A stretch of 60,479 nt of DNA, filler included, from Jimgerdemannia flammicorona (Eukaryota): the NCBI GenBank assembly GCA_003990765.1. It is 3 parts of 3 records of this genome, joined end to end, with 100 filler letters (N's around TTAATTAATTAA, not from the genome) between each part and the next. Parts side by side here need not be neighbours in the genome. Positions count along the whole stretch, not along the records: positions 40,388 to 60,479 come from RBNJ01001761.1; 2 more parts are not named here. One strand, 5' to 3'. A program made the position numbers and the translations under genes. Shown one piece after another: positions 11,468-60,479 of the stretch. The stretch's first letter is position 1. The number at the start of each line of letters is the position of its first letter. The notes beneath the pieces were generated by a model. It ran no database searches, was not told the origin of the DNA, and saw only the letters and a program-made list of their open reading frames with translations.

Positions 11468-11504
11468 ATGCCTCAGGGATGAGACCATCTATTCAGAAGG
11501 AAGT

Positions 11505-11970: not shown

Positions 11971-11974
11971 ATAT

Positions 11975-17400: not shown

Positions 17401-18003
17401 TCTGCCTGGAGATCTTTTGTAGGGACTGGATCAAACATCCTTCTTACTTGAGGTGGTGGGGTAAGCTTCCCATTCCTCCCTCTCTTCCTCAGATTCTCCA
17501 ATCTCCTCAAAGGTGATAGTGTTTGCCTGCTTGCAGTTTCTGGTTGCATTGCTTGGATTAGTCTTTCACTTGGTTTCTGTCATGCATTCGGAGGCATAGT
17601 GGCCTTCTTCTCCACAGTTGTAGCATGTTATTGATTGTCTTGTATTTGTAGTAGCAAACTTCTGTACTGGCTTCTTCTTGAACTCTTTGACTATGTCACT
17701 GAGATATGCAGTCATTTCTGCAAACTGTTTGGCCAGTTCCTCCATTGAGTCAACCCTTCTCTGATCTTGTGGTTGCGGTTGTGTATTTCGGTTGACTATG
17801 GTAGCTGGGATAGTATTGGTGGCTCTTGGTGCTTGTTTGATTTTTACTCTGGTTATCCTTTCCATTGTATGGCCTTGAGGGTATCTGGCAGTCCAGTATC
17901 TTTGGGCATAGGTAACCTTCTGTCCCAGGTCTAGTAGTGTTGGGGTGGATCGAATGGCTAAAGCAATTTCTTAGTGAATGCCTTTCATAAAGGTATTCTC
18001 AGT

Positions 18004-31228: not shown

Positions 31229-31265
<37 letters not shown>

Positions 31266-34200: not shown

Positions 34201-35170
34201 GTGGTATGGGTCTGGCTTTCTGGTAGATAGGCTTGGTATCACCAGTGTCAACTTCATGGTAGTACTTGAGTTCTTGATTGTGGATATCTCTAAAGTCTGT
34301 AGCAAGTACTCCTTCATTCTGGTACAGGATCTTGAGACATTGTTCCTCCAAGGGAAAGTTTTCTCCAATGGTATATGTGTGCTTGTTCTGGTCCTTGTCT
34401 TTCTTGTGCTCAAGTTCAGTAATCTTGGTGGCAGCATAGGCTCTTCTTCCAGTAGATCCAAAGCCTTGTTCTCCTCTCTTGGTCTTAATAAGTTCAATGG
34501 CTTCTATGATCTTGGGCTTCTTGATTTCATGGATCAGCATCTGGCCAATCCTGTCATGCTTCTTGACTTCGAAGGGGGTGGTGTGGTTGTGATTTCTGAC
34601 TATGAGAAAAATCTTGCTAGTGTAATCAGGGTCAATTACTCCTCCTTCAACTGAGATTTTGCTTTTGGCCAGACTGCTCCTGGTCTTGATAATTCTGGCA
34701 TGGTTTTCTGACAACTTGACTCCAATTCCAGTGCCAAGTAGGGTAGTGGTCTGTGGTTTAAGGGTAGCATCTTGGATGCTGGCAAGGTCCATTCCTATGG
34801 CTCCTTCAGTCTTGTATTCTGGGATCTTGGCTTCAGGGTGAAACTTCTTGACCTTGAGGGTGATGTCTGATTCTTGTTCCTCCTCATTGTCACTGTCAGC
34901 TTGAAGCTCTGGGGGCTGGTCATCTTCTTCAGCTTTCCTTTTTGCTTTGGCAGCTTCTTGCTCATATTTCTGTTGGCAGATTTTCCTGACTTCGCTGATA
35001 CAGGACCAGCAGTCATTCAGGTGTTCAGAGCAGTACATTCTAGTACCATGAGGGCATCTTCCTTGAGGGGCATACCCATTAATGATCTTGTTATACTACT
35101 GCTCATCTGTGAGCTTGGGTGTCTTGTTCTTGTTCTTGTTCACCAAGTACATGAAGACCTCTGTGTCTTC
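29783..35170 (-). mobile_element. dUTPase-carrying Ty3/Gypsy family B: long 3' LTR (29783-31373), IN, RH, RT and dUTPase, interrupted by a LINE
   Basis: PPT AGGAGGAAGA abuts the LTR at 31373. IN 31738-32934, RT VYIDDVII, dUTPase GMDLAS…GGVIDPDYT…RGEQGFGSTG. The proteins are related to but distinct from family A. Confidence 0.92.
30259..31085 (-). pseudogene. LTR-encoded accessory ORF of family B (copy in the 3' LTR)
   Basis: ATG at 31085. ORF pieces 30792..30998 and 30259..30732 join after a 1-nt deletion near 30846. Homologous to 924-1781. Confidence 0.75.
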
Positions 35171-35172
35171 AC

Positions 35173-38100
35173 ACACCTTTCACCAGTAACATTTGGGTGA
35201 CACAAGACTCAGACAACACTTTTTACAATGTTTTTGGTATCTGACGACTAACAACATGGACAGCAACGATCGATCTGGTGAGCATACTGGCCAGGGGGGT
35301 GATGGCGCCTTTGGCTGGCAGCAGGTGGGGAGGAGGGGAGATGGTTTGGGGATGCCAGGGGCCTCGATGGCTAGCTGAGGCCCCGGCAGTGGAGGGAGGG
35401 GAGATCTGAGGCAGAGAGGAGGGGAGAGGTCAACCTTTGCTGACAAGGTCAGGATGGGGAAGATGGCTTCTGGGCTGGATAGTTGGCTGGGCCTGGGGAA
35501 GGCGACGATGGCTACTGCTGGGGGTCAGGGAGGTGCACCCCAGGGTACTTCTGGTGGTAGGGAAGGGGCTGGAGTAGGGGCTGGAGATGTGACTGTTGAT
35601 GGGGCTGTGACTGGGGATCTGACAAAAAATCCAGATGTGACGACAGTTGGCAATTTGGGACTTGGAGTGGGCATGAGGCCCAGGGACCTGGCAGATGGGG
35701 TGATAGGCATGGTGTCGGCCCCGTTACTCAAGAAGTCGAGATCCGAATTCATGGTCATGATGTGCTTCTGGGGCTTGGCAGTGACGGCAAGGATGATTTT
35801 GGGGCTGGTGGTGCAGGAGGCTAAGAGAGCAGCGTCAGTGAAGTTCTTGAGGAGAAAGGAAGGGGTTGAGGTGGGGTTTGAGGAGGAAGACACCTTGTTG
35901 GCAGCCATGGAGAAGGGGGTGATGGTTGGCAGGGTTGTGGTCCCTATGGCCCGGTGTATGCACTGGGACCCCCAGGTGGTGCAGTTGATGGTGTTGGACC
36001 TTCCTATGGTGTCGAAGAAAAGGACCAGAGAGTTGGTTGTGGAGGTGATCAAGGAGTATGGTGAGATTGTAGATGTTGGGTTCAAGGTCTGGGAGGGCAT
36101 GGAGCTTAGAACTGGAGACGTCGATGTCAGGGTGAGACTGGCTGGAAAGGAGAATACGGAGAAGTTGAGAGACTGGCCAGCAACACTGTGGTGGGGACCG
36201 GTGGAGTGTAAGGTCACTAGGGTGAAGGGGACTCAGGAGGAGGAGAAGAACCTGTTGGAGGCTCTGGAGGACCTGGAAGGGGGCAGTTGTGAGGAGGAGA
36301 TTAGCCTGGAAGGAGTTTGAGGCCAGGACGGTAGTGGGGGAGGTGGATGGGAAGAGGGTTCAGATGGAGAAGGGGGCCTGGGAGAAGATGCAGGGGAGGA
36401 GAATTCAGAAGGAGTTGTTGGCGAAGTTGGGCGGGGGTAGGGCTGGTGGAAGCTCCAGCAAGGGGGCTGCAGGGCTGCAGGAGAGTGCCTGGGCTGAAGG
36501 GGGAGAGATGGCCCAGGGTGGGGCTCAGATTGTAGTCAGGGAGAGGAGGGAGGATAACTTGGAGGTAGATGCCGAAATGGGCGAAGGTGGGTGCCCTCAG
36601 TATAGTGTGCCGGATGGGGCAGGAGGTGAGGAGGAGCTGATGGATGTACCGGAGGAGGAGTGGGATGAGTCAGTGAGGAGGAGCATACTGGTAGACCTCG
36701 AGGTGGATGGGGGACAAATTGCTCAGGGGGCAGCAGAGGCAGTAGATGAGGAGAAGTGGATGTGGAAGACCCTGGAAGGGCTAGCGGCTGAAGAGCTGGG
36801 GAGTGAGAACTTCAGGGTGATGGAGGAGAGGCATTGGGAGGAGATTCTATATGGGGAAGAGGTGCCAAGGAAGATAAGAAATAAGATCCTGGCTGTCCTC
36901 TTGGAGTCTGTTGAGTATCAGATTGATGATCAGCGAGAGGAGGAGCTTAGAAGGATTGCGAGTAACAGGGCACTTATCTTGTGGAACTCGAGGAAGGGAC
37001 TAGAGAAGTGGCACGCAGTCTGCTTAGATTACAGGGTGGATATGGAGGAGGTGGACAGGGTGGAGTGTCAGGAAATCTTGGGGGTGCTGGATGCTCAGGA
37101 TATTGCGGAGGGTGATTTGGAAGCTGAGCAGCTCTTGGACTTGGCAAGGGATGAGATGAGCATGGAATTATAGGTTGGGGTCCCTTTTACAATATCTACT
37201 CAATATGAACAGTATAACTAGGATATTCTCATTGAATGTGAATGGGTTACGGGGGGCAGCTAGGAGGAAGTACATCTTTGGTTGGCTTCGGGGTCTGGAT
37301 GCGGACCTCTTCTTGTTACAGGATGTTCGGTATGATGCAGATGTGGATTTACAGGATTGGACTAAGGAATGGGGGGGTGCAGCAGTTTGGAGGGGGAAAG
37401 TGGGTATTCTTGTTTGGAAAGGGATGGGGGACATTGGGGACATTGGACATTGGGGTTGCAGGTGGTGTGGGGAGTATGGCAGAGGCCTGGATGGGGCTCG
37501 CTGATGGTTGGGTCTTGTTACTATCCAGCTGAGAGAGGGGAGAGGGTGGATTGGATTCGCAGGTTGAAAGAGGCTGGTTTATTGGGAGAAGTTGGGTTTG
37601 ACTGTATGGGGGGGGACTTCAACATGGTACGGGATAAGGAGTTGGACAGAACTGATGGAGAGAGAGGCATGCGAGGTGAAAGTGGTGGGTTGGCAGACTG
37701 GTTGGAGATGGAAAGGTTGTGTTCTTTAGTGGACTCAGGGAGACATTTTTGGGCTGATCGGTGGATGTATACCCATTGGGTGGCAGGACTGGGCTCTAGG
37801 ATTGACTGGGTTCTAACAGCAGAGTGTTGGGGAGCAGATGTCTGGACAGTGCTGGGTGTCATATGGTGTCTATGGTCTGATCACTGGGGGTTGCTTGGAG
37901 GGGAGAGGTTTGGGGGAAATGAGGATGGGCCTGGATATTGGTGGCTAAATTCTTCCTTGTTGGAGGATAGGGCATTGTGGGAGGGTTGGGAAACAGAGGT
38001 GATCAGAGATATCAGCAGGTGGCAGGATCAAGGACTGGTGATTGGGAACCGCTGGAGAAGGCTGAAGGTGAAAGCTCAGGGGTATTGAAGGGAAGTGGGG

Positions 38101-40287
38101 AAAGGAAAGAGTGCTCAGCATAGGCAGCAGGTGATGTGGGCCTTGCAGTGTTTGGTGGCGCTCATGGAGAGATGGGTGGGTATGCTGGAGGATAGGGCCA
38201 AGGCTGATTGGCATATTGCAAGAATCTGGCAGGAGGTGGAGGAGCTCAAAGGGGTGCTATGGAGGGAGGAGGAGGAGCAGCTGCAGGGGATGGTGGCCTG
38301 CTTGTGATGGCAGGAACTTGAGGAAGGGGAGAGACCTACCAGGTTCTTGTCACGGTTGTTACAAGCATGATGAATGAGGCAGCGGTGGGAGGGAGTTTTG
38401 GATGAGAATGGTGAGCTAGTGGTGGGGACCCCAGTGATTTTGGGCCTCTTGCGATCCCAGTGGGAGAACCTTTGGAGTGAGGATGAAGGGGGACTGGATG
38501 CCCTAGACATTGAAAGGCAGCTGGGGGATTGGCACCCGGACCCTGCTATGGGACTTGTGGCATTGGGGGACCCAGTGAGTGGTGAGGAGATTTGCAAAGT
38601 GGTGGCCTCTATGAGTAAAGAGACAGCCCTGGGAGAGGATGGACTCCTCTGAGATTTTTGGCAGAAGATGACAGGGGTGCGTGAGGTACTTGAGGAAATG
38701 ATGGCTATGTGTGATGAAGTTCTTCGGTCTAGTGCCTGGATTGGGGGACAGTGCTTGGGGCTGGTCTCCTTGCTATATAAGAACAAGGGCAGGAGGGAGG
38801 ATTGGAAGAACTGGCGGCCAATCATGCTTCTGGACATGGACCACAAACTGGTGACGAAGATCTTGGTGTTGCGGTTGCAAGGGATCGCACAGCAGGTGCT
38901 TGGTTTGGAGCAACGTGGGTTTGTCAGCAGTCGATTGATTCGAGATGGGACAGCCTGGGTTCATGGAGTGATTGAAGGTACCCGGGCTACAGGGGTGGAT
39001 GGCAGATTGGTATTTCTAGACCAGGAGAAGGCTTATGATAGAGTGTGGAGAATATGGCTAGAGGGAGTGCTGAAGCGGATTGGTATCCCTTCAGGGTTCC
39101 GAGGTTCATTGATCAGCCTCTTGGAGGACAGTCAGGTGGCATTGGTCCTCAATGGCCACCAGGGGGTAACCTTCCCCCTGGGCCATGGGGTGCCACAAGG
39201 GGACCCCTTGTCACCCATATTGTATGCCCTTTCCCTGGAGCCACTACTGGACAGGATTCGGTATAAGATTGGAGGTTTGGACATCTTAGGGGTGAACTGG
39301 AAGGTGGGGGCCTTTGCCGATGATATGGTGGTTGGACTGGGGTCCTTGGGGGATGTTGGAGAGTTGCAGAGGACAGTGGAATGGTATGAGCGGGGTTCCA
39401 GTGCTAAACTGAACTGGCACAAATGCAAGATGCTGGTGCTGGGCACTGGAATTGTCAGTGGCAATGTTATTGGAATGGTGGTTCTGGCTGGTGAACCAGT
39501 GTGCTACTTGGGGATCTACTTCTCAGTGTTCGGATCTCTTCTTCCTCGGGCATGGTGGGACTGTAAACTGCTGGAGTGGGGCAATGTCTTGATGCGGTGG
39601 GGAGGCCGGCATATGTCCCTAGCCAGAAGGGTGATGGTGTTGAATGTGTACTGGATGCCGAAGCTGTGGTATGTTGGATATCATTTGGATTTCCTGCCGT
39701 GGGTGGTTAAGGGGTTGTTGAAGATGGCGAGGTCATGGATTTGGGGAGGGCGGCAGAGCCAGGTTAGTTGGGAGGTGCTCATGCTGCCCTTGGAAAGAGG
39801 TGGACTGGGCTTAGTAGACTTTACTAAGCAGCTTTTATGTCTGAGGGCCTGGTGGCTAAGGAGGGCGAGTGAGCTTAGAGGTTGGGAGTGGGTGCCACTC
39901 ATGCAGAGATTGTGGGAGGTTTGATACTCCCCATGTGGTGGCTCCAGCGACCTGCTTGCAATAGTGGCTATAGAAGGGAGTCGGAGGATGCGGTTTACAG
40001 GCTTTTGGTGGGGAGTGGTAGATGGTGCTAAGAAAATCAGCCTTCAGTGGTGAGGTGACGAGGCTGAGGAAGTTTGGGGACCGCAGATGTGGAGATGGGA
40101 CAGGCTTCTATTGGGTGGTATTCTGGTGGAGAACTTTCAGCTTGGCGAGGGTCTGGAGTACCTGCGAGGCCTAGGTGGAGACCTGTGGCCTGAAGCCTGG
40201 CAGAGGGTTGGAATCGGGGAAGAGTGGGATTGGAATGGGCTCTGGCTTTGGAGCAAACGGGTGAGGCAGTGGCTGCCCCCCAAGTTC
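35173..40287 (+). mobile_element. L1/Tx1-like LINE with intact 5' end: ORF1 (35256-37173) and ORF2 (37205 onward; APE endonuclease and RT); 3' end lost in the gap
   Basis: Endonuclease motifs SLNVNGL, GGDFNMV, SRIDWVL and SDH. RT motifs NWRPIMLL, LDQEKAYDRV, GVPQGDPLSPILY and FADD. Broken by stops and frameshifts. Confidence 0.93.
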
Positions 40288-40387: not shown

Positions 40388-40825
40388 GAAAAGCAGTCAC
40401 CTACGCCAGAACCGTGCTCGCCGGGAAGCTCGCCAAAGCCAGAGGGCCCCACCACAGGCACCGAGGACCTGCAGGTAACCTACACTGAGCACTTGACGCC
40501 CAAGGTCGGCCGACTCCCTACGTAGCCCAAGACACACCGAGACAACTCCTTGTTGGCGACGGCAAAAGGAAGAAGGCACCGCACCAAAACGGGTACACCC
40601 CAGACGCAGCTGAAGGCACCAGAATCCGCGAAAAAGTGGAGGAAGCACCGATCTGACACCGATAAAGGGGCAACATATCACCATTGCCTCCCTCCCACTG
40701 CCCTGCAACAGGTACAGCAAACCAACCCGAGGTAGAGGGGGTAATAATTGTGGAAAGTGGACTCGGAAGGTTGCCTACCAAACCATTGTGACCGGTAAGG
40801 TAGCGGAGAAAGGGGCGTAGAAATA
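40388..40825 (-). mobile_element. Possible 5' end of a related LINE (minus strand), cut by the gap
   Basis: CpG-rich block. Its minus-strand start CCCTTTCTCCGCTACCTTACCGGTCACA resembles the LINE 5' end CACTTTCTCCGGTAACATTCAGGTTACA at 18021. The similarity is weak. Confidence 0.35.
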
Positions 40826-40859
40826 GGTTATCTATATGAGATTGTTTCAGAATATTTAT

Positions 40860-41450
40860 ACTTCTCTTCATCAGTAGTATTTAGAAATATAACTGTCTTT
40901 TGAAAATTCTATCAGAATTTCCATTACATCAGATATCTATATCTAGTTACTTCTGTATTTGATAAAAGATTGTTTACTTTTTTTTAAATAGTATTTATAC
41001 TTGTAGTATCTTTTCCATTTTATGAGATAGTATTAGATGGGCTTGGTAGCTTATCTAAATTAATAATTCTTATAATTCAGAATATAGTCTCCTTCATATT
41101 CTAATTGCTGATCAATAATTACTAAATTGTGAGATAGTATAGTTTTTTCTTCAAAGGTATTCAGAGTATATAGCTAAAGTTGAAATATATGAAATACTGG
41201 ATAAATTCTCTTTAGTATGTATTACTAAGAGATCTAACTTATATATAATAGATCTATATTTTTTAAGAATCTTGAATAGTCTAATATAACAGAGTTTAAG
41301 TTTCTTTTTGGAATCTATATTATCTAGCATTAGGTACTAAGTACTAAGTAATACTTATTCTTCTGTTTTATAAGTAACTTTCTTTTATTTTATTAGTATA
41401 TACTACTTATATTCTTTGTTCCTCTATGAGAACATCTTATGTTTACTGAA
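40860..41450 (-). mobile_element. Decayed chromovirus 3' end (IN C-terminus and chromodomain)
   Basis: Colinear with 2150-2700; minus strand reads YLIKWKRY near 41005-41030. Confidence 0.6.
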
Positions 41451-41509
41451 TGTTATCTTATAATTCTATATATAGCTGATACTGTGGTTTAGATGGTAAC
41501 TTATAATAA

Positions 41510-41929
41510 AACTCTATACTAATAGAATTAATATATTGTAGATAATCAATAGTGACTATCAGCTCTAATTTTTGAGTTTTTGAGAAAGTATCAAGTTCCA
41601 ATTGCCTATTATAGCAGAGTCTAGGTTTTGCTTTTAAATTCTTATTCTGGTGAGAGGGCCATACTTGTATTCCAAGTTAATCAGACTCAGAATTATTAAT
41701 AAGTTAGATTGAAGGACTTTTTATGATAAGAATAGTGCTTTATTCTTATATTTAGAAAAAGTAGAGCTGAGGTTATAATACACTCAGTATAGAAGATATT
41801 TATATATGATATACTGGATATATCTATATATAGTTATACTACTTTGGGTAACTATGGCTGCTACTTGAAATTTCTATCAGAATTTCCAGAGGCTTATAGA
41901 TGTATATACACATATAATAATTTATTACA
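41510..41929 (-). repeat. Decayed LTR-like repeat, with an inverted second copy at about 44363-44840
   Basis: The reverse complement of 41660-41710 (…TCTGATTAACTTGGAATACAAGTATG) matches 44630-44680. On the minus strand a purine tract GAAGGGAGGGA precedes TGTAAT at 41929. Confidence 0.5.
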
Positions 41930-42723
41930 TCCCTCCCTTCTTTACTTGAGTCTACTTATTAGACTCAGTACTAAACTCTAGATACTTATTGAACTAAAGA
42001 GCAGTATACTAAACTACTTGAAAAATAATTTTACTCTATCATTCATTACTCAAATTAATAATATTCTCAGAGAATACTCTATAGAGATAGTCAAGAAATC
42101 TGATGTCTTCTTCATTACTTATATTCTTGCTTGTATCTCTTGATAGACCTACATCAGTTATGCTACTTATTCTTAGAGCTATTATATATCTTCTATAGAA
42201 ATTATGATATTGAAAAAAGATTTATATTAGTAAGGAAGTGAGATTTAACTTTTTCACTACTACTAATTATAATAAATATTCTATTATAGAGAACAACTAT
42301 ACTTATTAAAATGCAAGAATACTTTAATATAGTAAAGTTAGATAAAATCTGAGACTTAGACTATATGTCAGTAATGTCCAAATAGAAATATATAACTAGA
42401 TTTAAGAAATAGGATTTTGAGAAGTTCAATTGCCTTGGAGATTCAAATAAAAGTATGATAACTAACTAGACTGAGCTTTATTGAAGTATTCAGAGAGGGT
42501 ATTTGTATAAGAGAAATAGAAAGAAAAAGAAACAAATAGAATATTACTATACTAGATATCAAGCAATAAGTTATACTTGATAGAACTTAGTAGAATATTA
42601 CAGAGAGTTACTAAGTATTGATTAGTAATTGATAGAATCTTAGCAGAACTATTTAGGAAACAGATTCTTGACAAATGACTAAGTAATTCTATACTATTCT
42701 AAGCTATTCTGGAATGTTATACT

Positions 42724-43294
42724 TAGTACTCTGAATGAGCTGATCTAGATCAGATTCAAATCACATTTGGATCAACTTGAATAAAATTCAAATCCCATCC
42801 AGATTGATTTGAATCAATCATTGTTTTGATTTCCAAATTAGACAATTAAATGTTTACATCAATAACTTGATAAATATCATTCAATTTTGATGATCTTGGT
42901 GCCATTTGAAAGGCCTTAATAATGCCTTTCTAATGATACCAAGAATATTGAAATTAGATCATATATTGCTGAGTTATCAAAGAAAATGTCTAACTTGCCA
43001 ATTTTGGAAATTTCTTCAAAAGAACAGTTTCCTTAATAGCTCGGCAACATGTAATCCGATTTTAATATTCTTGGTATCATTAGAAAGGACATATTAAGAG
43101 CTTTCAAATGATATCAAGATCATCAAAATTAGATGATTATTTATTGAGTTATTGATATAAACATTTAATTGTCTAATTTGGAAATCAAATCAATCTGGAT
43201 AGGATTTAAATCCTATCTGAGTTGATTCAGATGGGATTCAATTCAAATCTAATCCAAATCCAATCCAGATTAAATTGACTCATTCAGAGTACTA
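42724..43294. mobile_element. hAT-type foldback MITE (571 bp)
   Basis: Perfect 16-bp TIR TAGTACTCTGAATGAG/CTCATTCAGAGTACTA and 8-bp TSD GTTATACT/GTTCTACT. Long internal inverted arms (about 42826-42975 vs 43036-43190). Confidence 0.88.
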
Positions 43295-43839
43295 GTTCTA
43301 CTGAGTTATATAATAAAAAAAAAAGATAAATTAGTAGAAGAAAAATAGAATATAGAGGATTGTTACACCTATCCTGAGTGTATAAAGATGAAGAAGAAAT
43401 GCAACTATACTTGAAAGATGCCTATAGCTAAAGTTGCAGAAGTACTAGTAATTTGGAATCAAGAAGTATCTGAAGAAGAAACCTCTGAATAAGAAGTTTC
43501 TGAACAAAAAGAATACTCTGAACTCATTTTGTAAAATGATCTCTACTAGATACTACTAGAAGATAATGATCCTTAGAATCTTAAAGAAGGCCCAAGCATG
43601 GTCACAATTGTTCAAAGATAGAAAACTCATTAAGAAAGAGCCTTTTAGCTAGAGAGATATTAGTATTAAAATATCTTCCACTCTCTCTAAGACTACCACT
43701 ATTAGTACTACCTATTAGACTAATAAAAAAAAACAAAGAAACTGTAGACCAGGATCTTTAATCACAATTGTACAAACTACTATCTTTCAAGAAACAACCA
43801 TAATATTAAAAATAAATAAAGATACTTTACTTAAACAGA

Positions 43840-44095
43840 AGTACTATCTCTAGCTACTCTTCTTCTAACCTATAATAGAGATAGATATAAATATCTCTAG
43901 TATTAGAGTAAATAAACCTCAGATCAAAATAGTTTAAAGCAAAGAGAAAATAAGAGAATTAGTAAGCCTGTGGGCAGATACACTTTGAACTCACCCACTT
44001 CTATATTCTAAAGACTCTATAGAGTTAAAGAAGATTAAGTTTTCAAAATACAGAAATCTGATATACTTATATAGTTATATATCTACTATATTATA
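43840..44095 (+). repeat. Decayed LTR fragment with the family A/C promoter-polyA core
   Basis: ATATAAATATCTCTAGTATTAGAGTAAATAAACCTCAGATC and AGAAATCTGATATACTT match the family A LTR 3' half. Confidence 0.55.
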
Positions 44096-46109
44096 CTATA
44101 TAGATTAGCTTGAGCTCTTAGTTACTTTGTTAAAAGTAAAAAATATTTTTATAATTTCTGATATTTTTAGTATTTAGTAGTATAATAGATCAATCTAGAT
44201 ATCAAGTAGTCAATTTCCTTACTGAGATGGATTCTTGAATATAGAGAAGAATTTGAAAAATTTATTGACAACTATATAAAAAATAAATAAAAGAACCTGT
44301 ATCTATTTTTTTTGAGAGAAACTACAGAATATTTTATTACTTTTTATTAAATATAAGAAAAATGTAACAGTTCATTATATAGCAATAAAGCTACTGAAAA
44401 TTCTAATAGAATTTTCAATAGAAATTCTAATAGAATTTCTAATAAATAGTTATAGATATCTCATATAGTATAACTTTATATAGTATATTATATTTAGCTA
44501 TAGCTTTAACTATATAAATATTCTTATACTAAGTATATTGTAATCTCAGTCTAAAAGTTGAAAAAAAGCTTAAACTCTACTTTCTCTGAATATATAAATA
44601 AGCAGTATTCTTATCAAAGAACTCTCAGATCTAACTTGTTAACAATTTTGAGCCTGATTAACTTAGGATACAAGTATGATATCTTAGCCACTAGTATAAG
44701 AACTCAAAAGTAATACTTGAACTATACTTTTACAATAGATATATAATTGGAACTTAGTACTTCTTTCTAAGTATCCAAAACTTAGAGCCAATAGTTATTT
44801 GATTATCTATAAAACATTAATTCTATTAGTATATAGTTTTATTATATCAAGTAGAGAGAGTATTATTGGATATAACTATACTAAATATTTAAGCTCAAGA
44901 GGTTTTTAAATAAAGTAATATATCCAAACTTAATAAATACAGAAGAATCAATATTCTTATTTCATATATGAATATAAGATTTATCAATATCTCTCCCAAC
45001 TGACTGCAGACCCTCTTATCTGTATCTTCTTATATTTGTCTATCTTGTCCTATCTCTTCTCATTTCCTACTTAATAAATTTAATTATTTTAAGATAAATT
45101 CTAACTCAATTATAGTTCTGACTTAATAACCCCTAATTTATTTATAAAGAAGATTGAAAATTAGAGCATAGTATTAGACAGATAAAAAAAAAGAAGCATT
45201 TTGACATACTTTTGAGAATAAGAGCTGGATTTTCAAAATAGATTTATCAACTATATTATATATAGTGTGACATTGGTTTTGTATAATGAACTTCGACTGC
45301 ACGGCTCAATGTGTGCCACTTGGTGAAGTGCACAATGTATATCTGAGGGTGTTGGTGACATTCGTGGGTTGATGGTCACGTGATCGGCTCGTTCGATTCA
45401 TACGATAATTGATAGTGAGAGTTCGTTCAATGATGGGAGAGGTCGTTCGATTGTTCAATGGCTCGGGACGTCGATGGCTTAATTGTTTAGTGGAAAAGGG
45501 CGGCGAATAACTTGAATTTATGTGGTGACGACGGGCTTGGCTTTAAGCGGTTCGTGGCGCAGTAGGTCGGGAAAACGGAGGTTGATGGCTCGCTCATCCA
45601 TCTTGACTTGTTAACTTGAAAGATTCCTGGCAGTCATTCAGGTCTTTGGCAGCGGCCTTGTATCCTTTAGCTGGGTAACTTGGGTTCCTTGGGTTTCCGG
45701 GTCTTAAATCTCGAATGGCGGTCGAATGGCAGTGGTCCAAATGGTGGTTGAATGGCGGCGGTCGTAGTCTTGAATCCTTGGCTGGGTCTCGGGTCTCGAA
45801 TGGCGGCAGTCGGGTAACGTTTTCTTTCCGTGGCAAGAGAAAATTCTTTAACTCAAACTTCCGAGTGATCCGTTGCTCTAGGTTGTTATCTTGTTCTCAG
45901 AATTTATCCGGTCTCTTGGAGGCAGTGTGTTTTCTCTGTAAAACTATCTGGCTGAGGTTTATTCACTCTAAGAGTATGGGTTATTTATACAAGTTTGCTA
46001 GCTATGGGGGGGGGGGGCGCGACTAAGACTAAGGTATACTACGTTGTGGCGAACTTATGCTATTGGTTTGCACGATATGAGGTGCAGGCTATTGTTTACT
46101 ACAGATTGG

Positions 46110-46446
46110 GTTGTAGGGGATAGCAACGCTGGATTCGGACCTGCTGACAAAATGCTGAAAACGGTGGTACTGGGTAGCAACGCTGGATTCGGATGAGCTG
46201 ACATGATACGATAATTGTTGCCAGAAACAGTTGTAGAGGGTAGTAACACTGAATTCGGACCTGCTGACAAAATGCTGAAAATGGTGGTACTGGGTAGCAA
46301 TGCTGGATTCGGATGAGCTGACATGATACGATGATTGTTGCCGGAAACAGTTGTGGAGGGTGGTAACGCTGAATTCGGACCTGCTGACAAAATGCTGAAA
46401 ATGGTGGTACTGGGTAGCAATGCTGGATTCGGATGAGCTGACATGA
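46110..46446. repeat. About 3 x 120-bp tandem repeat (two related subunits) in the family C LTR U3
   Basis: TTCGGACCTGCTGACAAAATGCTGAAAA recurs at 120-bp spacing (lines 46141, 46261, 46381), alternating with GGATTCGGATGAGCTGACATGA. Confidence 0.9.
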
Positions 46447-46455
46447 GCTGGGTTC

Positions 46456-47463
46456 TCACAGCTGATGGGCGGTACTCTGGAGGAAATAGTACCCTTCGTC
46501 CGTGGCGGGCAAATCTTGCTGGGTTGTGATTTCTTCTTCATCATGTCTCTCCTCAAAGGGGGGAAGAGCCGGCCAAGAGGTGAGGGGGTAGAAAAGTGGC
46601 CAGTCATCTTCAACAACATTCTCCAACCCTTGAACAGCTTGAATGCGGACAGAGGACTGGTAGACTCTCTGTTGCTCCTCTTCTTCTTCTGAAGACTCGT
46701 CAGTTTCAGTGTCAGAGGGGGTTTCTCCAGGGGTGGGGTCTTGGAGTTCTTGGGCTTCCTCTTTAAAGACAGGGACTTCTTGAGCTTCTTCTTGATTCGG
46801 TTCCCAAATGATGAGATGTGAATTGTGGCTGACAGGGTGGTGGGTGGTTGGGGTAGCTCCAACAGGTGTCTCTATAGTGATGGGCAGTCCTTCAAATATC
46901 TCCATAAGACTCATTAGGTGACCTTGATGGTTGTCTCGGAGTGGAGTGGTGTGGAAGCCTGGCTGAGTAGGTTTGGTTTGTTGGCTTCCTACGGCGATGC
47001 AGTTGCTGCCAATAGCATTGGCTACTTCAGATTCTATCCAGTCAGCATCTTCAGTTGAAAGACGTGAGAGGCTGCCAGCTGTTACTCCTTGCAAGTGTGC
47101 TATAGCCCAGGGAATATGGCGGAAGATTTGATGGATATGGAGGGCTCTCTTGATTAGCCGGCTGGTGGTTAACATTTCAGCAATGAGGTCTTCCTGGTCG
47201 CCTTCTTGAGTCTCATTGCGAAGGCGGTGTCCGATTTCATAGTCATGCCAGAGGGTCATTCGTTCGGTAGTGTCTTTGAGCTGTTGGGTCATTATATACC
47301 GGTAGTTGATGAAGTGTCCAAGGTCCTCAGTGTAGAAGTTCAAGTGTTCAGTAGTGTCTGGGCACCAGATGGCCTTCTTGATAGCTTCGAAGATCAGGGT
47401 CTTTGGGCCAGGCAAAGGGGTAGAGCGGCGGGAGGTCTGGTTGGATCAGCGAATGGGAGGCAT
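46456..47463 (-). CDS. LTR-encoded accessory protein (335 codons; one early TGA at codon 6, then open to the end), unknown function
   Basis: ATG at 47463 is in frame with ORF 46456..47415: MPPIR*SNQTSRRSTPLPGPKTLIFEAIKKAIW…LWHDYEIGHRL…RALHIHQIFRHIPWAIAHLQGVT…, followed by an acidic low-complexity C-terminus. Confidence 0.75.
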
Positions 47464-48957
47464 TGTGTGGTGGGTACTTGGTTCTTTGGTGCTGATCCCT
47501 GAGGCGGAGTATGGTTCCTTAAATAACGTGGTCTTCATTTTGGCTCGGATCTTCTTGTCTTCTTTTGGGATGATCACCTAATGGGTCAGGCTGTCTATTT
47601 GATTGTCACACCATTATGTTGTCTGATCTTAGCAGTCACCGGTACTCCGTTGTCATTTGCTTACGTCACAATAGGTATATCATATTATCAATATTACTTC
47701 TGATATTATAGTAGGAACCAGAAACCCAGATAAGTAGTGATGATGTATTGTATCTTATTATATTCCACTTTGGTGGACATATTGAGAGAATTACTAATTG
47801 AGTTTTTACAGGAATACTATATCAGATAGAAGTGTAGAGTGGTATTATTTTAGATAGCCACTGAGTTATTATGTAGTATATTGAGAAAATAACTAAAATC
47901 TCAGGACCAAATGACTGACCTGTACTTCCCCTTGCAAGTACTGTTTATGACTAAGTTGACCTCTCATGGAAGAAATATAAAACACCTAACTCAAAGGGCT
48001 TGAATCATTGAATGCTACCATTGTTGTTGAGAATACACATCATTGATGATTTTTGTGATCCCCCTTACATTGCCCTTTCAATCAATTGCACGAGAAAGTA
48101 TCAGAAGCTTCGTTTCCAAATACATGTGAAATAAATATTAAAGAAGCAACAAAAGGCAATGGAGCTATATGAAGTAAAAGGAGAAGTGGGTCCCAGGATC
48201 AAATGGTATGCTTAAGCTATCACTGGAGCATTCAGATTCGTTTGGCGAGCCCAAATTTTGTACTACCAGTCCCAAAACATGGTGAATCCCACAACCGCGT
48301 GTGAGGGCGCTCAAAACCAGTATTGATAAGTTGATGGCTTCCATTATACTTCAGCAATGTCATCAGAATCATATTCTTGGAAATAGTGTCCAACATTTTC
48401 TCTGCTTTTGCCATTGAGGAGAAATAATTTGTTGCCAACAAAGCTCGATTACAGCCCTAAGATATCCCCCGATTTTCTGTTCGATATGTTTATTAGCATA
48501 TTATCTCCCACATTATATCTATCTACCCATGAGACCCACTTGTATCGAGTCTTGCCTGTATTAATAAACGAAATGCAGTATATGTTATCATGGCTTTGAT
48601 AATGGATGGTGGGTTTGAAAACAGACTAAGTCCTTCCTATATCTATTGTCCATCTTCCAGAAGACATTCCTAAATTCATCAAGGTTCATCGCTGCCTTGC
48701 GTAATGCATCGCTCATCACCGATGCTTCCATTCCCTGCTCGCTCGTCTTATGCCTCGTGGTATGCGACGTTACCGACGAATGCATACTTGTCCTGTGCGG
48801 ACATAGGGGCGATGCGCTCGTGTGCATCTCTGTTGCCAATTGGCACGGAATCACTGATCGCTCCATCCGCCCCCTCATCGAAAAGTGCAGAAGCTCAAGG
48901 CTTACATTTTATCAAATGTGAGCCCAAATTATTTCCTAGTGTAGACCCTTTATCTTA

Positions 48958-49618
48958 TATAATAATATTAATAACAATATACATTAATATACAATAATTT
49001 GATAATCCATCACATTATTCTGATTGTGAACGTGTTCATAACTGCCCCTTATCATCGATAAGAGCTTTCCTTCTATAACTTTTTCTCGTCGCACTCAACT
49101 GAATGGGAGTACGGACGACGGGTCATATAAATTGTACAAACACATCAAAGGAAATTGAGTAATAATATTTTCTAGCATTATGTAAAATTTTTAAACAAAC
49201 CATTTCCGTATATAAATGGCGCGCCGAGAACATTGCAGCCATTGAGATAGACTATCTCAGAACGGACCGTTTTACCAACTTTGGACCTCTTCCCAACCAC
49301 ATATTCACTCCTTATTCCACCCCAGCCATCCCTCGCAATCTCCTTCACAAACTTGACTCACTTATATAATGCCTCATACACATCGTCATTATCCGAGATC
49401 TCGAATACTTACATCGCCGACTGTATTCCGCCTTGCTTCCCTTACGACATTGTGACCTGCAAATGAGATAGATATCCGTCGACAGAAAATATACGAGGTT
49501 AGCCTGGACAGTGTGCAGGGCCTGCAAGTCAGACATGTGTGTGATGTGGTTTACCGCAATGTCATGGTTCACTAAAAAGTCTGCTGCTTTGCCATAGCCG
49601 ATCTGTGAAGAGGTTGGC

Positions 49619-49684
<66 letters not shown>

Positions 49685-50960
49685 AAGAGTTATATATCTC
49701 ATTGAGCAGGAGTGTTGGAATAATAACTCTATAGTCCAGTATGTGATCTTATATCATTCTATCAGATTTATATCATTTATTAATAATATAGAGAAATATG
49801 TAACCTATATAACTTCAATAAAATCACCCTCTTTTATAATACTATACAAGTATTTCAGATTTCTATATCTTGAAAACTTGATCTTCTCTAACTCTGCAGA
49901 ATTCTTAGGATACAGAAATAGGTAAGTTCAAAGTATATCTACCTATAAACTTACTAGTCCTCTTGCTTTTTCTTTACTTTAAATTATTTTAATCTGAGGT
50001 TTATTTACTCTAGATACTGGGATATTTATATAAGTTTGCTAGTTATAGAGTGGCTAAGTTATAACTATATTTCCTATAAGTCACTTTTTACAAGTATTGA
50101 ATCTTTTGATATCTGCTAAGATTTCAATAATTATAAGAATTTTGAAATCTGCAGAATCTTAGCAATTGTTAAAGTTTTTATATTTGTAGAATAATTACTT
50201 TTATAGAGCTATATTATATTTGGAAATCAGATTCAGGTACTATAATTAAATATCTATTCTTCTGATTTATATTACTAATTAAGATCAACCATCACAATAA
50301 TAATATTAATAACAATATATATTAATATGTAATTATTAGAAAATCCATCACATTACTCTATTGTGAATATATTCAAAACTGACCCTTATCATTGATAAGA
50401 GCTTTCCTTCTAAAAAAATTTCTCATCGCACTCAACTGAATATAAATTGTACAAATACATCAAAAGAAATTGTGTAATAATATTTTCTAGCAATATGTAC
50501 AAAATTTATAATCAAAACATTTCTGTATTTAAATGGCGCCCCGAGAACATTGCAGCCATTAAGATAGACTATCTCAGAACGGACCGTTATTACAACTTTG
50601 GACCTCTTCTCTACCACATATTCTCTCCTTATTCCACCCCAGCCATCCCACGCAATCTCCTTCACAAACTTGACTCACTTATATAATGCCCCATACACAT
50701 CGTCATTATCCGAGATCTCGATACTTTACATCGCCGACTGTATTCAGCCTTGCTTCCCTTACGACATTGTGACCTGCAAATGAGATAGCTATCCGTCAAC
50801 AGAAAATATACGAGGTTAGCCTGGACAGTATGCAGGGCCTGCAAGTCAGACATGTGTGTGATGGACTTGGTCAAGGCTAACCGCGCCACAACTTTCGACA
50901 GGTGGTTTACCGCAATGTCATGGTTTACTAAAAAGTCTGCTGCTTTGCCATAGCCGATCT
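48958..50960 (+). repeat. Local direct duplication (about 48958-49605 and 50297-50960), each copy followed by a T-rich tract
   Basis: Colinear, for example AAATGGCGC.CCGAGAACATTGCAGCC at ~49215 and ~50531, and GCCATAGCCGATCT at ~49591 and ~50947. The second copy has about 40 extra bp near 50862-50901. Confidence 0.85.
49742..50296 (-). repeat. Decayed solo LTR related to families A/C
   Basis: TGTGAT…ATCACA ends. Contains ATCTGAGGTTTATTTACTCTAGATACTGGGATATTTATATAAGTTTGCTAG, the reverse complement of the LTR promoter core. The TSD is not preserved. Confidence 0.7.
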
Positions 50961-53900
50961 TTGGCTTTTTTTTTTTTTTTTTTTGGTTTTTGTTTTTTTT
51001 GTTTTTTGTTTTTTGTTTTTTGTTTTTTGTTTTTTGTTTTTTGTTTGTCAAGTGGAAGAGGGGAGTGGGGAGAGAAAATTGTCAGAGAGTGACATTAGGA
51101 TCTATTTTCTCAAATTTGAACAATCGCAACGCATCATAATCGGCCTTGACGGCCATGTCAAGGCGCATCACACAGACGATTCCATTCCCCATTCTACGTA
51201 CCATCCTCGTTACAGATCATGTACGGCATCTCGCAACAGCGTCAACTGTCATGGTCCTGATTATCCATGAGGATATCGAAGTTACAATTATTAGGATATG
51301 CCAGAAATACTTCTAAATGATTCTGTTTCGATGAAGTAAACCTCACACATAATTCTTTCTCATCACTTCCCACATCCCCTCATCTACGCTCGCCGCCCTC
51401 CCTCCCCAGCACAATCGCTAATGAAGGCACCACGTCTTCACGTTACTCTGTAACGACGAGACAGGTTGCGCGTCGATGCCATCCACATCGTCAGTAAGGC
51501 TGAAGCGTAGGGTAACGTCGAGGGGCATATACTCGTCTGGTTTTATGTCGGCGATGAACTACACCTCAAGATAGGGAGACAGTAGTAAAGTAATGCGTCG
51601 ATCGCGTGCGCAATGGTGGTGGGAGAGGTGGGAAGATAACGCCCATCCAAATATTAACCCGCGTTCTTTTCTCGCTCACATTTCCTACTATAAAATCACC
51701 CTCCATCCTTTTCCATGTCCATTTTACATACGGAATTTCCGTCTCCTGGCTGCTGACCGACGAATTACCGTTGGGCGACCTGCCGCTGGACGACGATTTA
51801 CCACTTGAGGGCGATTTTCGTGAGCGACAACTTGCGACTGGAGGAGGAATGATGAGGGATAATCAACCTGCGAATTTACTCTCGAAGTCTTACTGCTGAG
51901 CTACGACGGTGGCAATCAGCCTCGCTGGGAATGGCGAATAGCGACGATTTAACGCAATAATTTTCCTGCTGTCCTATGACGAGTTGCAGCTGAGCGACGA
52001 TTGCTAATGTAAGTGACGCTTTGTCGTATGCGACGATTGACCTCTTTGTGGGTGGCCAATAGTCGCCAGAGGGTAATTAGCTGTGAGGGACGATCGTCGG
52101 CTGAGTGAAGACTAAGAGTGACAATCTGCCGGTGTGCGCCAGACGAATATTGCAGGCGAGTGGCAACTTGGTAGAGTGGCTGAGTATTGTCGTGGGTAGC
52201 ATTTGACGTTGGGACATATTTGTCTGTTTTCTATAATAAACCAAGCATCACGTGGTCATTATCCACATTCACGAATTTTAAGTCAAGCCCAATACTATTT
52301 GTGTTGGGAAAACCCGATAAAAATTTTGGCCGACACTATTATATATTAATATTATCACTATATTCTTGTTATATTATTAATATTATTTGTTATTTTATTT
52401 TAATTTTATTGTATTGTTTCTATTATTAACTAAATATAATTTTATTATTAGAAAACCAGCTGTATCTTTAAGTGCCCGCCGCCCTATCCCTCCCCGGCAC
52501 TCTTTCGCCCCTGGTGACCTGATAACCCGGTGACCTGGAATCGCCCCTGGTAACCTGGTATCCTGGAAGCCATAAGACTGGAGCAACAGCAATCTGTGCC
52601 AATACGGAAAATTGCATCGGATGTTCGGACCTAGTCATTATGGTGGGGCCGAGAAAAAAATTATACAATGTGGTGGTTTAGTGTCAGATTAAAAATTTCC
52701 ACCAAGTGTGCGACTGCCCATTGGATGGAGCGCCGTGATGACGACGATAATGGCGAATGGCTCGTGGGCCTCGACGGTTCGATGATGACGCCTCCTCTGG
52801 TGACATCACCGTCTTGACATCTGTTTCATAGTAGCCGCGTTGAAATAATATAATACAAATTCACAAACTGCTTGATACAATCCTGCGCGGTTGAAATTCA
52901 AATTAATTCGACGGCCAACACCATCAAATGCGGCGGTGATATACTTAATCAATGAATTCCAACGCGTTATAATATTCCATCACGTTACAAACCTCAGCGC
53001 GTATGACCACATGTGACTTTGATTACTAGAAAGTATTCGCTTATAAAAGCTTTTCATTCACAGCACTCATACACATTCCTAAACCGTTCAATATCCATTT
53101 CGTGACCCATCAAGTTGCATGCATTTGTGATCATCGCGTTCGACTTCATCTTGAGAACAAGTAAATACCATTTATTTGTTAAAACACTTTGAACCATTTC
53201 ATCCCGTGTTTACCACATACGGTTCCACCAATATGTAAATGTAGACGGAAACAGAAACGTTACAGATCCAATGGGGATTTGGTCGGGCAACGGAATTCGA
53301 CCTGAATTTCGGGATCAGTAAGAGTTCTGGACGAAGAACATTCGGTTATGTAGGACTCCGTTGGTAGGCGGAGTACGCGTAGGCGAAATACGTTGACCCC
53401 GGGACAGAAATCCGAAATCCGAAATCGGGCGAAGAACGTAATAATGAAAAGGGACCTAAATCGGAATCTTGAAAAGAACTCAGATGAAGGACATAGCAAT
53501 GAAAAAGGGGCCTTGAACGGAAATCGTAACAGACATGGATTGGGTGAGCAGGGAGGTAGAAACAAGCTTGTCACGGGAATATATTGCAAAGTGGCGATGC
53601 AGTCTAGTGGGATTTACAACTCGATAAATGGTATACGTCATTATTGTGGCTTATGTATACATATGTCATCAATATCTACGCCACTAGAAATCATTCGTAA
53701 CACGTTGTTTTCAAGATTGCCGCTCTTTGTGAAATACCAAATATTCAGAATTTATTGCTCAAGATTACCATCCAGGGTGAACAGAGGTAAAGGCAAAGAC
53801 AGGCGAAGAGGCAGAGGGAAGGTGTTGTGTGCTCTTCAGAATTCTGCAATATTTAGATTTAAACTACTTGGGTATCAATATAAATTTCTACTAAAAATGA

Positions 53901-57916: not shown

Positions 57917-59271
57917 ATGTCCGCCCAAACCCGCCAACAGTCCTTACAGGGCTTACTTGCCCGACTCAAGCCCTTCGAACACCTGCATAGAGCCCACCAA
58001 ATTGACATCTTGGCTTGGAAGAACCAATATTCCGTTTACAACCAAGAACTCCGTGCCTGTCTTAACACCTTGGCCGTGCCGCAGCTGGAGCCATACCTTG
58101 TCTGGATTCCGATCGGAGACTTCCAGTTAAAACAGGTTGCCGAAGGCGGATTTGCCAAAGTTTACCAAGCACATGTTTTATTGAAACGAGGAGGGTTTCA
58201 GGTGGCTGCCAAAGAATTGAAATTGACAATGGTTCAAGAGGTGAGTTTCGGTTGGTGTGATATATCCAATATTTTCCACACAATATAAATTGTCAATATC
58301 CTTGCTATATTTTTATCTCACCAATACAGTTAGTGCTGAGTGTCTATTTGAGCCGCTGTGGAAATGACATCAGCAATGCCCCTACAATGGATATTGTTGC
58401 TGTATCACGACATCCTGATACCAACGAGTATCTAATGATTATGCAATTTGCTGATATCGGTACTCTTGAGAAGCAGCCGTGCGAACAAGATGGTGATTGG
58501 TATACAGCTTTCGCATATGCCATAAAACTTACCAGCCGCTTAGCCAGTCTCCATGATATGGGATTCAACCATAAGGATCTTCACCCGGGAAACGTAGTAT
58601 TCCACACGTCGCATACTGCACTCCTGATCGATGTCGGCCTTAGTCAAGCTGTAGAAGATGCAAATTCCGTGAAAGGTGTCTATGGTCGAATGGCATACTT
58701 CCCTCCGGAGATCTTTAAGGGTGAAGATTATACACAGAAATCAGATGTCTACTGCTTGGGAACTCTGTTGTGGCAGTTGATTGTTGGCGTCCCACCACAA
58801 GGCAACGCATCGGTGGCTGTCACCAGCAATCCTGATGGGCTTCGAGAGGAGTTGATCCATGGTGCACCAAAAACGTTCAACGATATCATTAAGAGCTGCT
58901 GGCACATTGACCCTAACCAGCGACCTAGTGCTCTTGAAGTCTACAATCAATTGTTGGAATGCACAGCTGGTTTTGTCAGCATTCCATTTGTCATGCAACC
59001 AACTATAGAAGATAAAATATTAGGAGAGCTTGCTATTACTTCTATGTCATTTTCACTTGAGATGCAGTCGTTCATCAAGACAAGACGGGCCATTTATCAG
59101 CAAGAGTTGAAATTTGCAAACAGCAGCAAAGTCTTTGAATTCGTGGATGGAACTAGTATATACAACACTAGGAGTAGATTTTATACATATTTACAACTCA
59201 AACAATTTACCAAAGAGTACTTGAGATTGACATCTGCCACTCTTATACAACAACCAAATCAATGTAGGTAG
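57917..59271 (+). CDS. Protein kinase (TKL-like); exons 57917-58240 and 58330-~59265, probably spliced to downstream LRR exons
   Basis: WIPIGDFQLKQVAEGGFAKVY, VAAKEL, HKDLHPGNVV, IDVGLS, YGRMAYFPPE, KSDVYCLG and CWHIDPNQRPS. GT-AG intron 58241-58329 is in phase 0. Confidence 0.85.
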
Positions 59272-59455: not shown

Positions 59456-60408
59456 AAAGCAGGATCAGTGATAAGGAGGCTAATATTCTAGTGGAGCTTC
59501 TGAAGCAAAACATAACTTTGAATAAGTTAAATCTCTCTGGTATGACTGTGTGAAATATTTTTTACAGAAAAGAAATATATACTCTATGCATATATACTTA
59601 TATCTGCTTATATTCAGAAAAGTACAAGTACACAAGTGACAAAGCAAGGTGCACTCTAATCGAATTTCTGAAGCAGTACACAAACGTGACGAAGCTCGAT
59701 CTCAGCAGTGAGTTAGAATTCTCTGAATTACCGTTTTGTAGTGGTGGGATATAAGTAAGCCGTGATAGAGATGTGCTCACATCCCTTCATTATATTCAGA
59801 AAACGGAATCGGCATTCTGTTGACCCGCGCCATTGCCGAGCTTCTAAGGCAGAACACAACTTTGACCACCGTCAATTTTCAAAGTATGTTAGAAATGTGT
59901 GAAGCATTGTGTGCAGCTGCGTGATAAAATGAAACTCGATCTGTGCGTGTTCGCTCATCCCCTGTTCATTTTAAAGTGAATAATATTGGCCACGAGGGGG
60001 CACGCGCTCTCGCCGAGTCATTGAAGCAGAACACGACCTTGACCGAGCTCAATCTCGGAGGTATGTCAGAACTGTGTGAAGCATTGTGAGCAACTGCATG
60101 ATGGAATGGCTGTGTGTGTTCGCTCAATCCCTGTTAATTTTAAAGATAATAGAATTGGTCACGAGGGAGTATGCGCTCTAGCCGAGTCTTTGAAGCAGAA
60201 CACGACCTTGACAGAGCTGAATCTCTCCTGTATGTCAGAACTGCATAAAGCATTGTGTGCAGCTGCGTGGTAGAATGACGCTCACGATCTGTACCTATTT
60301 GCTCATCCCTGTCCATTTTAAAAGATAATAACATTGACCATGAGGGGGCACGTGCTCTAGCTGAATCTCTGGAGCAGAACACGACCTTGACCAAGCTGAA
60401 TCTCCTTG
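59456..60408 (+). CDS. RNI/NLRC3-type leucine-rich repeat exons (59456-59539, 59618-59707, 59800-59883, 59977-60060, 60146-60229, 60325-60408); likely continues past the window
   Basis: Phase-1 exons of 84 nt (one of 90 nt), each encoding one 28-aa repeat such as NNIGHEGARALAESLKQNTTLTELNL, flanked by AG/GT. The later introns are themselves repeated. Confidence 0.88.
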
Positions 60409-60479
60409 GTATGTCAGAACTGTGTAAAGCATTGTGGCAGATGCACGATGGAATGAAGTTCACGATCTGTACCTGTTTG

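Follow-up and report, generated by a model that had tools for sequence, protein, structure and literature searches.

Accessory genes distinguish complex retroviruses from plain retrotransposons, and a gene placed in the U3 region of the long terminal repeat (LTR) is a retroviral speciality. In mouse mammary tumour virus (MMTV), a vertebrate retrovirus, U3 holds the superantigen gene sag, which encodes a type II membrane glycoprotein. Lentiviral nef and the spumavirus bel/tas/bet genes are 3' accessory genes that run into U3 and overlap it in part, and Tas activates its own LTR as well as an internal promoter. Here we describe a protein family, for which we use the name ORF3 (third open reading frame, ORF), that is shared by three families of LTR retrotransposons (A, B and C) in a 60,479-nucleotide (nt) stretch of DNA from Jimgerdemannia flammicorona (assembly GCA_003990765.1; parts of three records joined end to end, positions 40,388 to 60,479 from RBNJ01001761.1), called the window below. 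In B and C, ORF3 lies inside the U3 of 1.6-1.9 kb LTRs, whereas in A it precedes the polypurine tract (PPT); it is probably a real protein-coding third gene of these elements that encodes a trans-acting accessory factor.

Extra ORFs also occur in LTR retrotransposons. Some fungal Gypsy elements are drawn with an additional 'add. ORF' of unknown function (Novikova et al. 2010, PMC2864245). The same paper records a dUTPase between protease (PR) and reverse transcriptase (RT) in fungal Gypsy elements of the PosPlaTy3-5 type and mentions an env-like ORF of Athila, and captured ORFs of rotifer elements are described in PMC5408684.

Placement of ORF3 relative to pol, the polypurine tract and the LTR

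Self-comparison and Pfam scans delimited three related LTR retrotransposon families in the window. Family A has two copies (91% alike), family B has one element (B2, minus strand, 5'-truncated) and one lone LTR copy (B1), probably a solo LTR, and family C is represented by a single piece. The sequence-only reading of this window had proposed five copies of one protein family, lying between integrase (IN) and the PPT in A and inside the LTR upstream of the TATA box in B and C. All five copies are present, and the positions of the PPTs, LTR starts and TATA boxes bear out this placement:

11006-11467, plus strand: ORF3 of A1, short form, 153 codons with 4 internal stops
12775-13236, minus strand: ORF3 of A2, 153 codons with 3 internal stops; a 125-codon stretch at 12844-13221 is open
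924-1781, minus strand: ORF3 of B1, 285 codons, start ATG changed to ATA, 5 internal stops
30259-31085, minus strand: ORF3 of B2, long form with one frameshift
46456-47463, minus strand: ORF3 of C, long form, 335 codons plus stop; reads MPPIR and, after a stop at codon 6, stays open for 329 codons
5208-5677 and 11505-11971, plus strand: 5' LTR and 3' LTR (~467 bp, without an ORF) of the A1 element; the LTR pair is 94% identical
11495-11503, plus strand: PPT of A1, downstream of the ORF3 end at 11467 and followed by the LTR start at 11505
12267-18005, minus strand: A2 element, 5' end truncated
31749-35079, minus strand: pol of B2 (dUTPase, RT, RNase H, integrase core), ~70% identical to A in DNA
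31374-31384, minus strand: PPT of B2, directly upstream of the LTR start at 31373; both lie upstream of ORF3
29783-31373, minus strand: 3' LTR of B2 (1,591 bp) with ORF3 inside; TATA box at 30012-30021
445-2023, minus strand: B1, second B LTR copy, ~80% identical to B2
45266-47670, minus strand: the single family C piece, 5' LTR plus leader-like sequence

The carriers are non-chromodomain Ty3/gypsy LTR retrotransposons with the order PR-dUTPase-RT-RNase H-IN. They have direct LTRs of the TG...CA type, a PPT before the 3' LTR and the PR-RT-RNase H-IN order of Ty3/gypsy elements. The chromodomain at the integrase C-terminus by which chromoviruses are recognised is missing, as none of the five IN-region ORFs scanned with Pfam gave a Chromo match. 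By Pfam, pol of A and B reads aspartyl protease (weak, below cut-off), dUTPase, RVT_1, RT_RNaseH_2 and rve, and terminates ~40 residues past a GPY/F-like motif. The dUTPase (PF00692) was matched at E 1.3e-25 in B2, where it lies upstream of RVT_1 in the same ORF, and at E 4.6e-17 in A1.

In A1 the LTRs run TGT...ACA and the PPT precedes the 3' LTR. The ORF3 ATG stands in the +1 frame, 11 nt before the pol stop, and the two frames thus overlap. With the start codon overlapping the last pol codons and no chromodomain in these elements, the A gene could be read as lengthening integrase at its C-terminus, translated after a +1 frameshift or through reinitiation where the frames overlap, and as a targeting module that replaces the chromodomain. 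We consider this very improbable. The ATG has the optimal context ACCATGG, and the A-type relatives P0006, P0023 and P0027 (see below) keep its MANN/MANQ start; in B and C over 600 nt, with stops in every frame, separate the ORF from pol; and a protein search run with no limit on length returned no fusion to pol.

In family B the order of gene and PPT is reversed. The PPT/LTR-start junctions of A and B are identical at 21 of 24 nt without a gap, and B1 and B2 are alike from the LTR start inward, with the homology ceasing exactly at the B1 LTR start at 2023. The ORF3 ATG follows the LTR start by 288 nt in B2, 242 nt in B1 and 207 nt in C, and the ORF3 stop of B2 lies 238 nt before the TATA box, with AATAAA next. 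No ORF3 remnant was found in the 364-nt spacer between pol and PPT of B2. Since the plus-strand priming site of B and C lies upstream of ORF3, the whole gene falls within U3, is copied to both LTRs and is kept in solo LTRs. In all three families ORF3 is 3' of pol and therefore occupies the 3' end of the genomic RNA.

For family C, the LTR-start motif is at 47659-47670, with AT-rich unrelated DNA beyond it and no pol upstream in the window. We aligned contigs of four public runs (two of them, X1 and X2, from one study) to 45200-47800. Loose ends were found at exactly 47670 (five in X1, one in X2), and all six continue with one 24-letter sequence that has a purine run at its end on the element strand. 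Because other copies have internal sequence and a purine tract at this point, the LTR in the window is a 5' one, with a genuine boundary at 47670. Loose ends also occur at 45266, where the window copy stops and other C copies go on. Downstream of the ORF, C resembles the A LTR (local alignment z = 30.5), and the AATAAA block at 45952-45964 is identical in A and C. The parts of the C piece are:

45813..47670, minus strand: C 5' LTR, ~1.86 kb, with ORF3 inside; the start is taken from contig break points and the end, ~45813, is inferred from likeness to the A LTR end
46110-46446, minus strand: tandem repeats, ~three of 120 bp, between the ORF3 stop and the TATA box (self-BLAST 46110-46326 against 46230-46446, 94% identity)
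45980-46006, minus strand: 27-nt block of the core promoter, the same in A and C, which includes the TATA box at 45982-45991
45266-45812, minus strand: primer-binding-site/leader-like internal sequence, similar by eye to the A leader, truncated at 45266

In the U3 of the A LTR (11600-11720), before the TATA box, stand ~four copies of a ~16-nt partly palindromic word (TTAGACATTGTC-like), which are candidate factor-binding sites.

A metagenome scan with ORF3 returned one locus, L001, which carries a divergent long form. Right after its ORF3 stop comes a purine run followed by TGTAAT, a hint that a long form may be laid out as in A; the likeness is at the level of the motif only, as the sequence past TGTAAT has no significant likeness to the LTRs of A, B or C (z 0.1-1.2). 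Given this junction, and because C is present in a single copy and every B or C element of the window is incomplete, the B and C LTRs could be misdelimited and ORF3 could be internal in every family, following IN and preceding the true PPT, just as in A. Such a misreading is hard to reconcile with the B2 PPT and LTR start upstream of the ORF, so close to those of A and marking the limit of B1-B2 homology, with the lack of a purine tract after ORF3 in either B or C, or with the C contigs, which in both X1 and X2 (from the same study) depart at 47670 into a common purine-rich sequence where the window has unrelated AT-rich DNA with no pol. We therefore hold it to be highly unlikely and retain the U3 placement.

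Since sister families keep the same gene on opposite sides of the point at which the plus strand is primed, the boundary must have shifted one or more times, and this makes the families a clean natural experiment on LTR boundary evolution. A shift of the PPT, as suggested from the start, is a plausible scenario, in either direction. A possible relic of the integrase C-terminus in U3 upstream of ORF3 was rejected (z = 2.6, below the best shuffle). L001 also has a direct repeat of 28-33 nt (170-202 and 1481-1513; z = 6.8) flanking the ORF3 homologue, which may reflect partial LTR sequence on each side of the gene.

Homology, constraint and predicted fold of the ORF3 protein

By BLASTP the C protein matches two pieces of B2 (E 1e-11 and 3e-12) and, across 61 residues, A2 (E 7e-5). 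The profile-profile match between the A and B/C proteins, on which the existence of a single family hangs, was obtained with hhalign: an A-type profile of 5 sequences and a B/C-type profile of 8 sequences align over 77 columns with a probability of 84.7% and E 6.6e-6. The alignment is collinear over ~130 residues, A being without the C-terminal 130-190 residues. In local hmmsearch runs (Z = one million), the B/C hidden Markov model (HMM) recovers A-type proteins weakly (E 0.002-0.6), and two relatives, P0011 and P0028, are matched by both the B/C model (1e-10 and 3e-11) and the A model (7e-4 and 3e-4). Homology of A to B/C thus has moderate support from these comparisons, with P0011 and P0028 as the bridge. 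When 314 ORFs of the window were compared with the ORF3 HMMs, no further match was found beyond a 68-bp fragment, a sixth trace of the family:

6492-6559, plus strand: 68-bp insertion in the A1 gag region, absent from A2, antisense to A1, 91-93% match to part of the B ORF3 (91% at 1511-1578)

This insertion may be filler DNA or the product of a template switch between families.

A profile search of 1.84 billion protein representatives yielded 13 proteins with E <= 1e-3. One of them, P0013, an 846-residue immunoglobulin-repeat protein (E 6e-5), was judged spurious, and 12 relatives were counted as real, all of them short stand-alone ORFs. Intact relatives are of A type (130-153 amino acids, aa, starting with MANN or MANQ), B type (247 aa) and C type (324-331 aa); P0004/P0021, P0005, P0011 and P0012/P0029 are more distant. 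Intact ORFs of 130-342 aa with conserved starts (MANN..., MPA/MPP...) are found in metagenomic relatives down to ~20-30% identity. Each relative belongs to a cluster of 1-6 members, the contigs being 535-19,434 bp long, and the sole name that they carry is 'hypothetical protein'. The C copy of the window is 81% identical to the intact 325-aa P0001, and its codon-6 stop (TGA) is CGA (arginine) in copies from other samples. Scans of IMG/VR gave no locus with the A profile and two loci with the B/C alignment; both are phage contigs on which the match runs counter to real phage genes, and they were judged spurious.

No cellular gene family homologous to ORF3 was found among the 1.84 billion representatives. 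This bears on the view that ORF3 is a passenger, a fragment of a host gene captured once by the ancestral element and of no service to it. LTR retrotransposons do capture foreign ORFs, as rotifer elements illustrate (PMC5408684), and the present elements carry a dUTPase that was probably acquired (PMC2864245). Against a passenger stands the search result, in which only 12 small clusters on short contigs were seen; the ORF has stayed intact across lineages at 20-30% identity under constraint like that of pol, and its position 3' of pol has been retained despite the shift of the LTR boundary. We regard a passenger as improbable and a gene that serves the element as the better account.

Constraint was measured as the ratio of non-synonymous to synonymous substitution rates (dN/dS, omega), with stop-bearing codons omitted. 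For A1 versus A2, omega of ORF3 is 0.29 (146 codons; 14 synonymous and 18 non-synonymous changes), against 0.43 and 1.21 in the other two frames of ORF3 and 0.27 in pol (892 codons). For B1 versus B2 it is 0.33 (260 codons; N-domain 0.30, tail 0.35), against 0.83 in each of the other two frames. Neither ratio is near the value of 1 that would have spoken against a selected gene, and purifying selection on ORF3 appears supported, though by thin evidence. U3 regions carry conserved regulatory DNA, and each of the five window copies has at least one stop or frameshift; the open frames might accordingly be due to chance, or be kept by overlapping cis-acting DNA or RNA signals of U3, with no protein made. 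This reading is already largely refuted and retains almost no probability, because amino-acid changes are avoided in the ORF frame and not in the other two, similarity at the protein level outlasts the alignability of the DNA, the relatives hold intact ORFs of 130-342 aa, and AlphaFold predicts a confident fold from 19 sequences.

That fold was obtained for residues 1-150 of the C protein (19 aligned sequences; mean predicted local distance difference test, pLDDT, 84.2; predicted template modelling score, pTM, 0.75). The model has seven helices, and a 37-residue helix pairs with the next two to form a long helical hairpin. The conserved N-domain of ~145 aa is thus predicted to be all-helical and bears the motif A-K/R-x-I-H-x-I/L-F. 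A model of full-length C built from 9 sequences (pLDDT 42) was discarded. None of eight ORF3 proteins or pieces reached a Pfam gathering cut-off. At E <= 0.001 the N-domain matched nothing in PDB with Foldseek (best E 1.2) and nothing in BFVD (best E 0.89), VIA-align wide gave no Z >= 5 among 48,161 chains (best Z 3.3), a sequence profile search of PDB reached a best E of 1.5, and the best score in the ESM Atlas, 0.88, fell to an unnamed cluster. The proposal of one protein family in three related LTR families that matches no Pfam entry, solved structure or cellular family therefore held up.

The N-domain is near neutral (isoelectric point, pI, 5.7-8.8). Long forms add an acidic disordered tail of 100-190 residues in which repeated acidic-hydrophobic motifs are seen by eye; the tail pI is 4.1-4.2 in six of seven proteins (P0011: 6.0), and tails have 11-35 D+E against 1-9 K+R, with P0011 the exception. 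The short A form is without this tail. The highest 19-residue Kyte-Doolittle mean is 0.17-1.07 in nine of nine family proteins, so that no hydrophobic or transmembrane segment is present and the earlier exclusion of an env protein stands. From sequence and model, ORF3 is a soluble protein that is neither a recognisable enzyme nor an obvious nucleic-acid binder.

Mutation of the copies and other sequences of the window

The copies differ mostly by transitions, which make up 448 of 487 differences (92%) between A1 and A2 and 184 of 219 (84%) between B1 and B2, and which are enriched at CpA and CpG. The observed/expected ratio of CpG falls to 0.10-0.14 in A and B, as against 0.67 for C and 0.82 for the end of the window that bears genes. 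This pattern fits fungal repeat-directed mutation without proving it. Several AT-rich blocks (2099-2700 with 40824-41416, 2100-5200 and 41000-45000) have a GC content of 0.20-0.29 and CpG observed/expected of 0.00-0.03, and match other repeats at 70-74%; a decayed pol fragment lies within one of them (4254-5107, minus strand). They look like old elements worn by C-to-T mutation and adjoin the far less mutated C copy.

A G-rich block is present in two copies, at 18014-20094 and 35166-37249 (90% identical; GC content 0.55-0.59, GC skew up to 0.58), whose starts coincide exactly with the break points of the 5'-truncated A2 and B2. The block has long ORFs (477, 313 and 315 aa) that gave no Pfam match. 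An RVT_1 reverse transcriptase at 38653-39924 follows the second copy, so the block is probably another retroelement inserted into A2 and B2; the missing 5' parts of A2 and B2 were not found past it.

Repeats accompany the elements elsewhere. A short-period repeat at 136-405, which translates as a repeated 'IRMDQSGW'-like peptide, adjoins B1. Near C, 48959-49681 and 50297-51028 form a direct pair (~84% identity, 1.3 kb spacing), and 43885-44081 and 49835-50031 an inverted pair (82%), part of which resembles the A LTR (11728-11828 against 49966-50064). A 336-aa ORF with a Pkinase domain (58261-59271, plus strand; E 5e-23), located where CpG content is normal, is probably a host gene, and tandem repeats with units of ~170-180 bp occupy the right end of the window (59826-60479).

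Proposed function and comparison with known systems

We infer that ORF3 acts in trans as an accessory factor and is not an enzyme, a particle protein or an envelope protein. The near-neutral N-domain would most likely bind a protein partner, and the acidic-hydrophobic tail, by analogy with acidic activation domains, would most likely recruit host machinery; a neutral helical domain joined to such a tail would best suit a protein-binding adaptor or activator. Because A is without the tail, the core function should reside in the N-domain. If the gene is taken as real, a booster of LTR transcription is the foremost, still tentative, candidate; an adaptor that counters host silencing or restriction is a somewhat less likely possibility, a cofactor of integration or particle assembly is doubtful, and other functions share the rest. 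Should ORF3 regulate LTR transcription or silencing, it would offer a new handle on the control of fungal transposons.

Several points weigh against this account. The omega values rest on few substitutions, 32 in A and 110 in B, in transition-biased mutated copies, and the 18 best-supported differences between C and other copies (6 synonymous, 12 not) are barely better than neutral. The link of A to B/C, at the hhalign probability given above, is moderate and not strong. The accessory role, and with it the transactivator or anti-silencing role suggested by the sequence-only reading, is conjectural; the N-domain is near neutral, and no DNA-binding or other known fold was recognised in PDB, the 48,161 chains or BFVD. 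Set beside acidic activators of the Tas/VP16 kind, the long forms do have acidic tails; the short A form has none, so that whatever the tail does is inessential to the family. Finally, TATA-like motifs are common in AT-rich DNA, which weakens the promoter reading considered next.

Lying behind gag-pol at the 3' end of the genomic RNA, ORF3 could be expressed only from a subgenomic RNA or from a separate promoter. In B1, B2, C and L001 the start codon is preceded, at a distance of 62-87 nt, by a TATA-like box; between B and L001 the sequence is conserved over the last 40 nt ahead of the start codon (z = 10.8), and every ORF3 ATG has A at -3. Since TATA-like words are common in such DNA, an own promoter is a lead and not a finding. 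No consistent AG that could serve as splice acceptor before the ATG was seen by eye across B, C and L001. Contigs of X5, a run guessed to be RNA, cover mainly the R/U5 part common to A and are uninformative on transcripts. It is conceivable, if rather unlikely, that each B/C LTR is a self-contained gene with a TATA-like box, a 285-335-codon ORF and its own AATAAA, so that solo LTRs keep making the trans factor. Every full element would then have two expressed ORF3 copies and dead copies would help live ones; the LTR-encoded factor could activate the shared core promoter or block silencing, and nothing more than a new site of plus-strand priming would have been needed to carry the gene into the repeat or out of it.

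Like MMTV sag, ORF3 of B and C is a complete accessory ORF in U3, contained in both LTRs and downstream of every other gene; the sag-like placement, with the whole ORF between the LTR start and the TATA/R region, holds in B2 and C and fails in A. Unlike sag, ORF3 has no hydrophobic segment and no likeness in sequence or fold to solved or viral models, and its carriers are env-less retrotransposons. With nef and the bel region it shares the character of a 3' accessory gene at U3, and the role of Tas is of the kind that we propose for ORF3. It differs from them in lying wholly within U3 (B, C), and no homology was found; any DNA binding or transactivation by ORF3 would be hypothetical.

Among retrotransposons, the carriers resemble the PosPlaTy3-5 type in being fungal Ty3/gypsy elements with a dUTPase between PR and RT (PMC2864245). 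The 'add. ORF' of fungal Gypsy elements, to which the text of that paper gives no sequence, position or LTR placement, is possibly the same as ORF3. The extra ORFs of plants (Athila) and rotifers are, like ORF3, lineage-specific and placed after pol; they lie in the internal region and many are env-like or enzymatic (PMC2864245, PMC5408684), whereas ORF3 lies in the LTR (B, C), is predicted to be helical and belongs to no known family. The sequence-only reading had held that no such standard feature is known from fungal Ty3/Gypsy elements. This stands for an ORF inside the LTR, no description of which, for any fungal retrotransposon, was found in a full-text literature search, and needs amending for extra ORFs as such, which are on record (PMC2864245).

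What is known, then, are U3 genes in retroviruses and extra ORFs in LTR retrotransposons, and what is new is a protein family in a placement unusual for retrotransposons. For annotation this means that ORF-bearing LTRs of 1.6-1.9 kb may be called host genes; the public relatives bear an uninformative label. A conserved and selected U3 gene in env-less Ty3/gypsy elements of fungal type would show that LTR retrotransposons can build the same layout as retroviruses independently.

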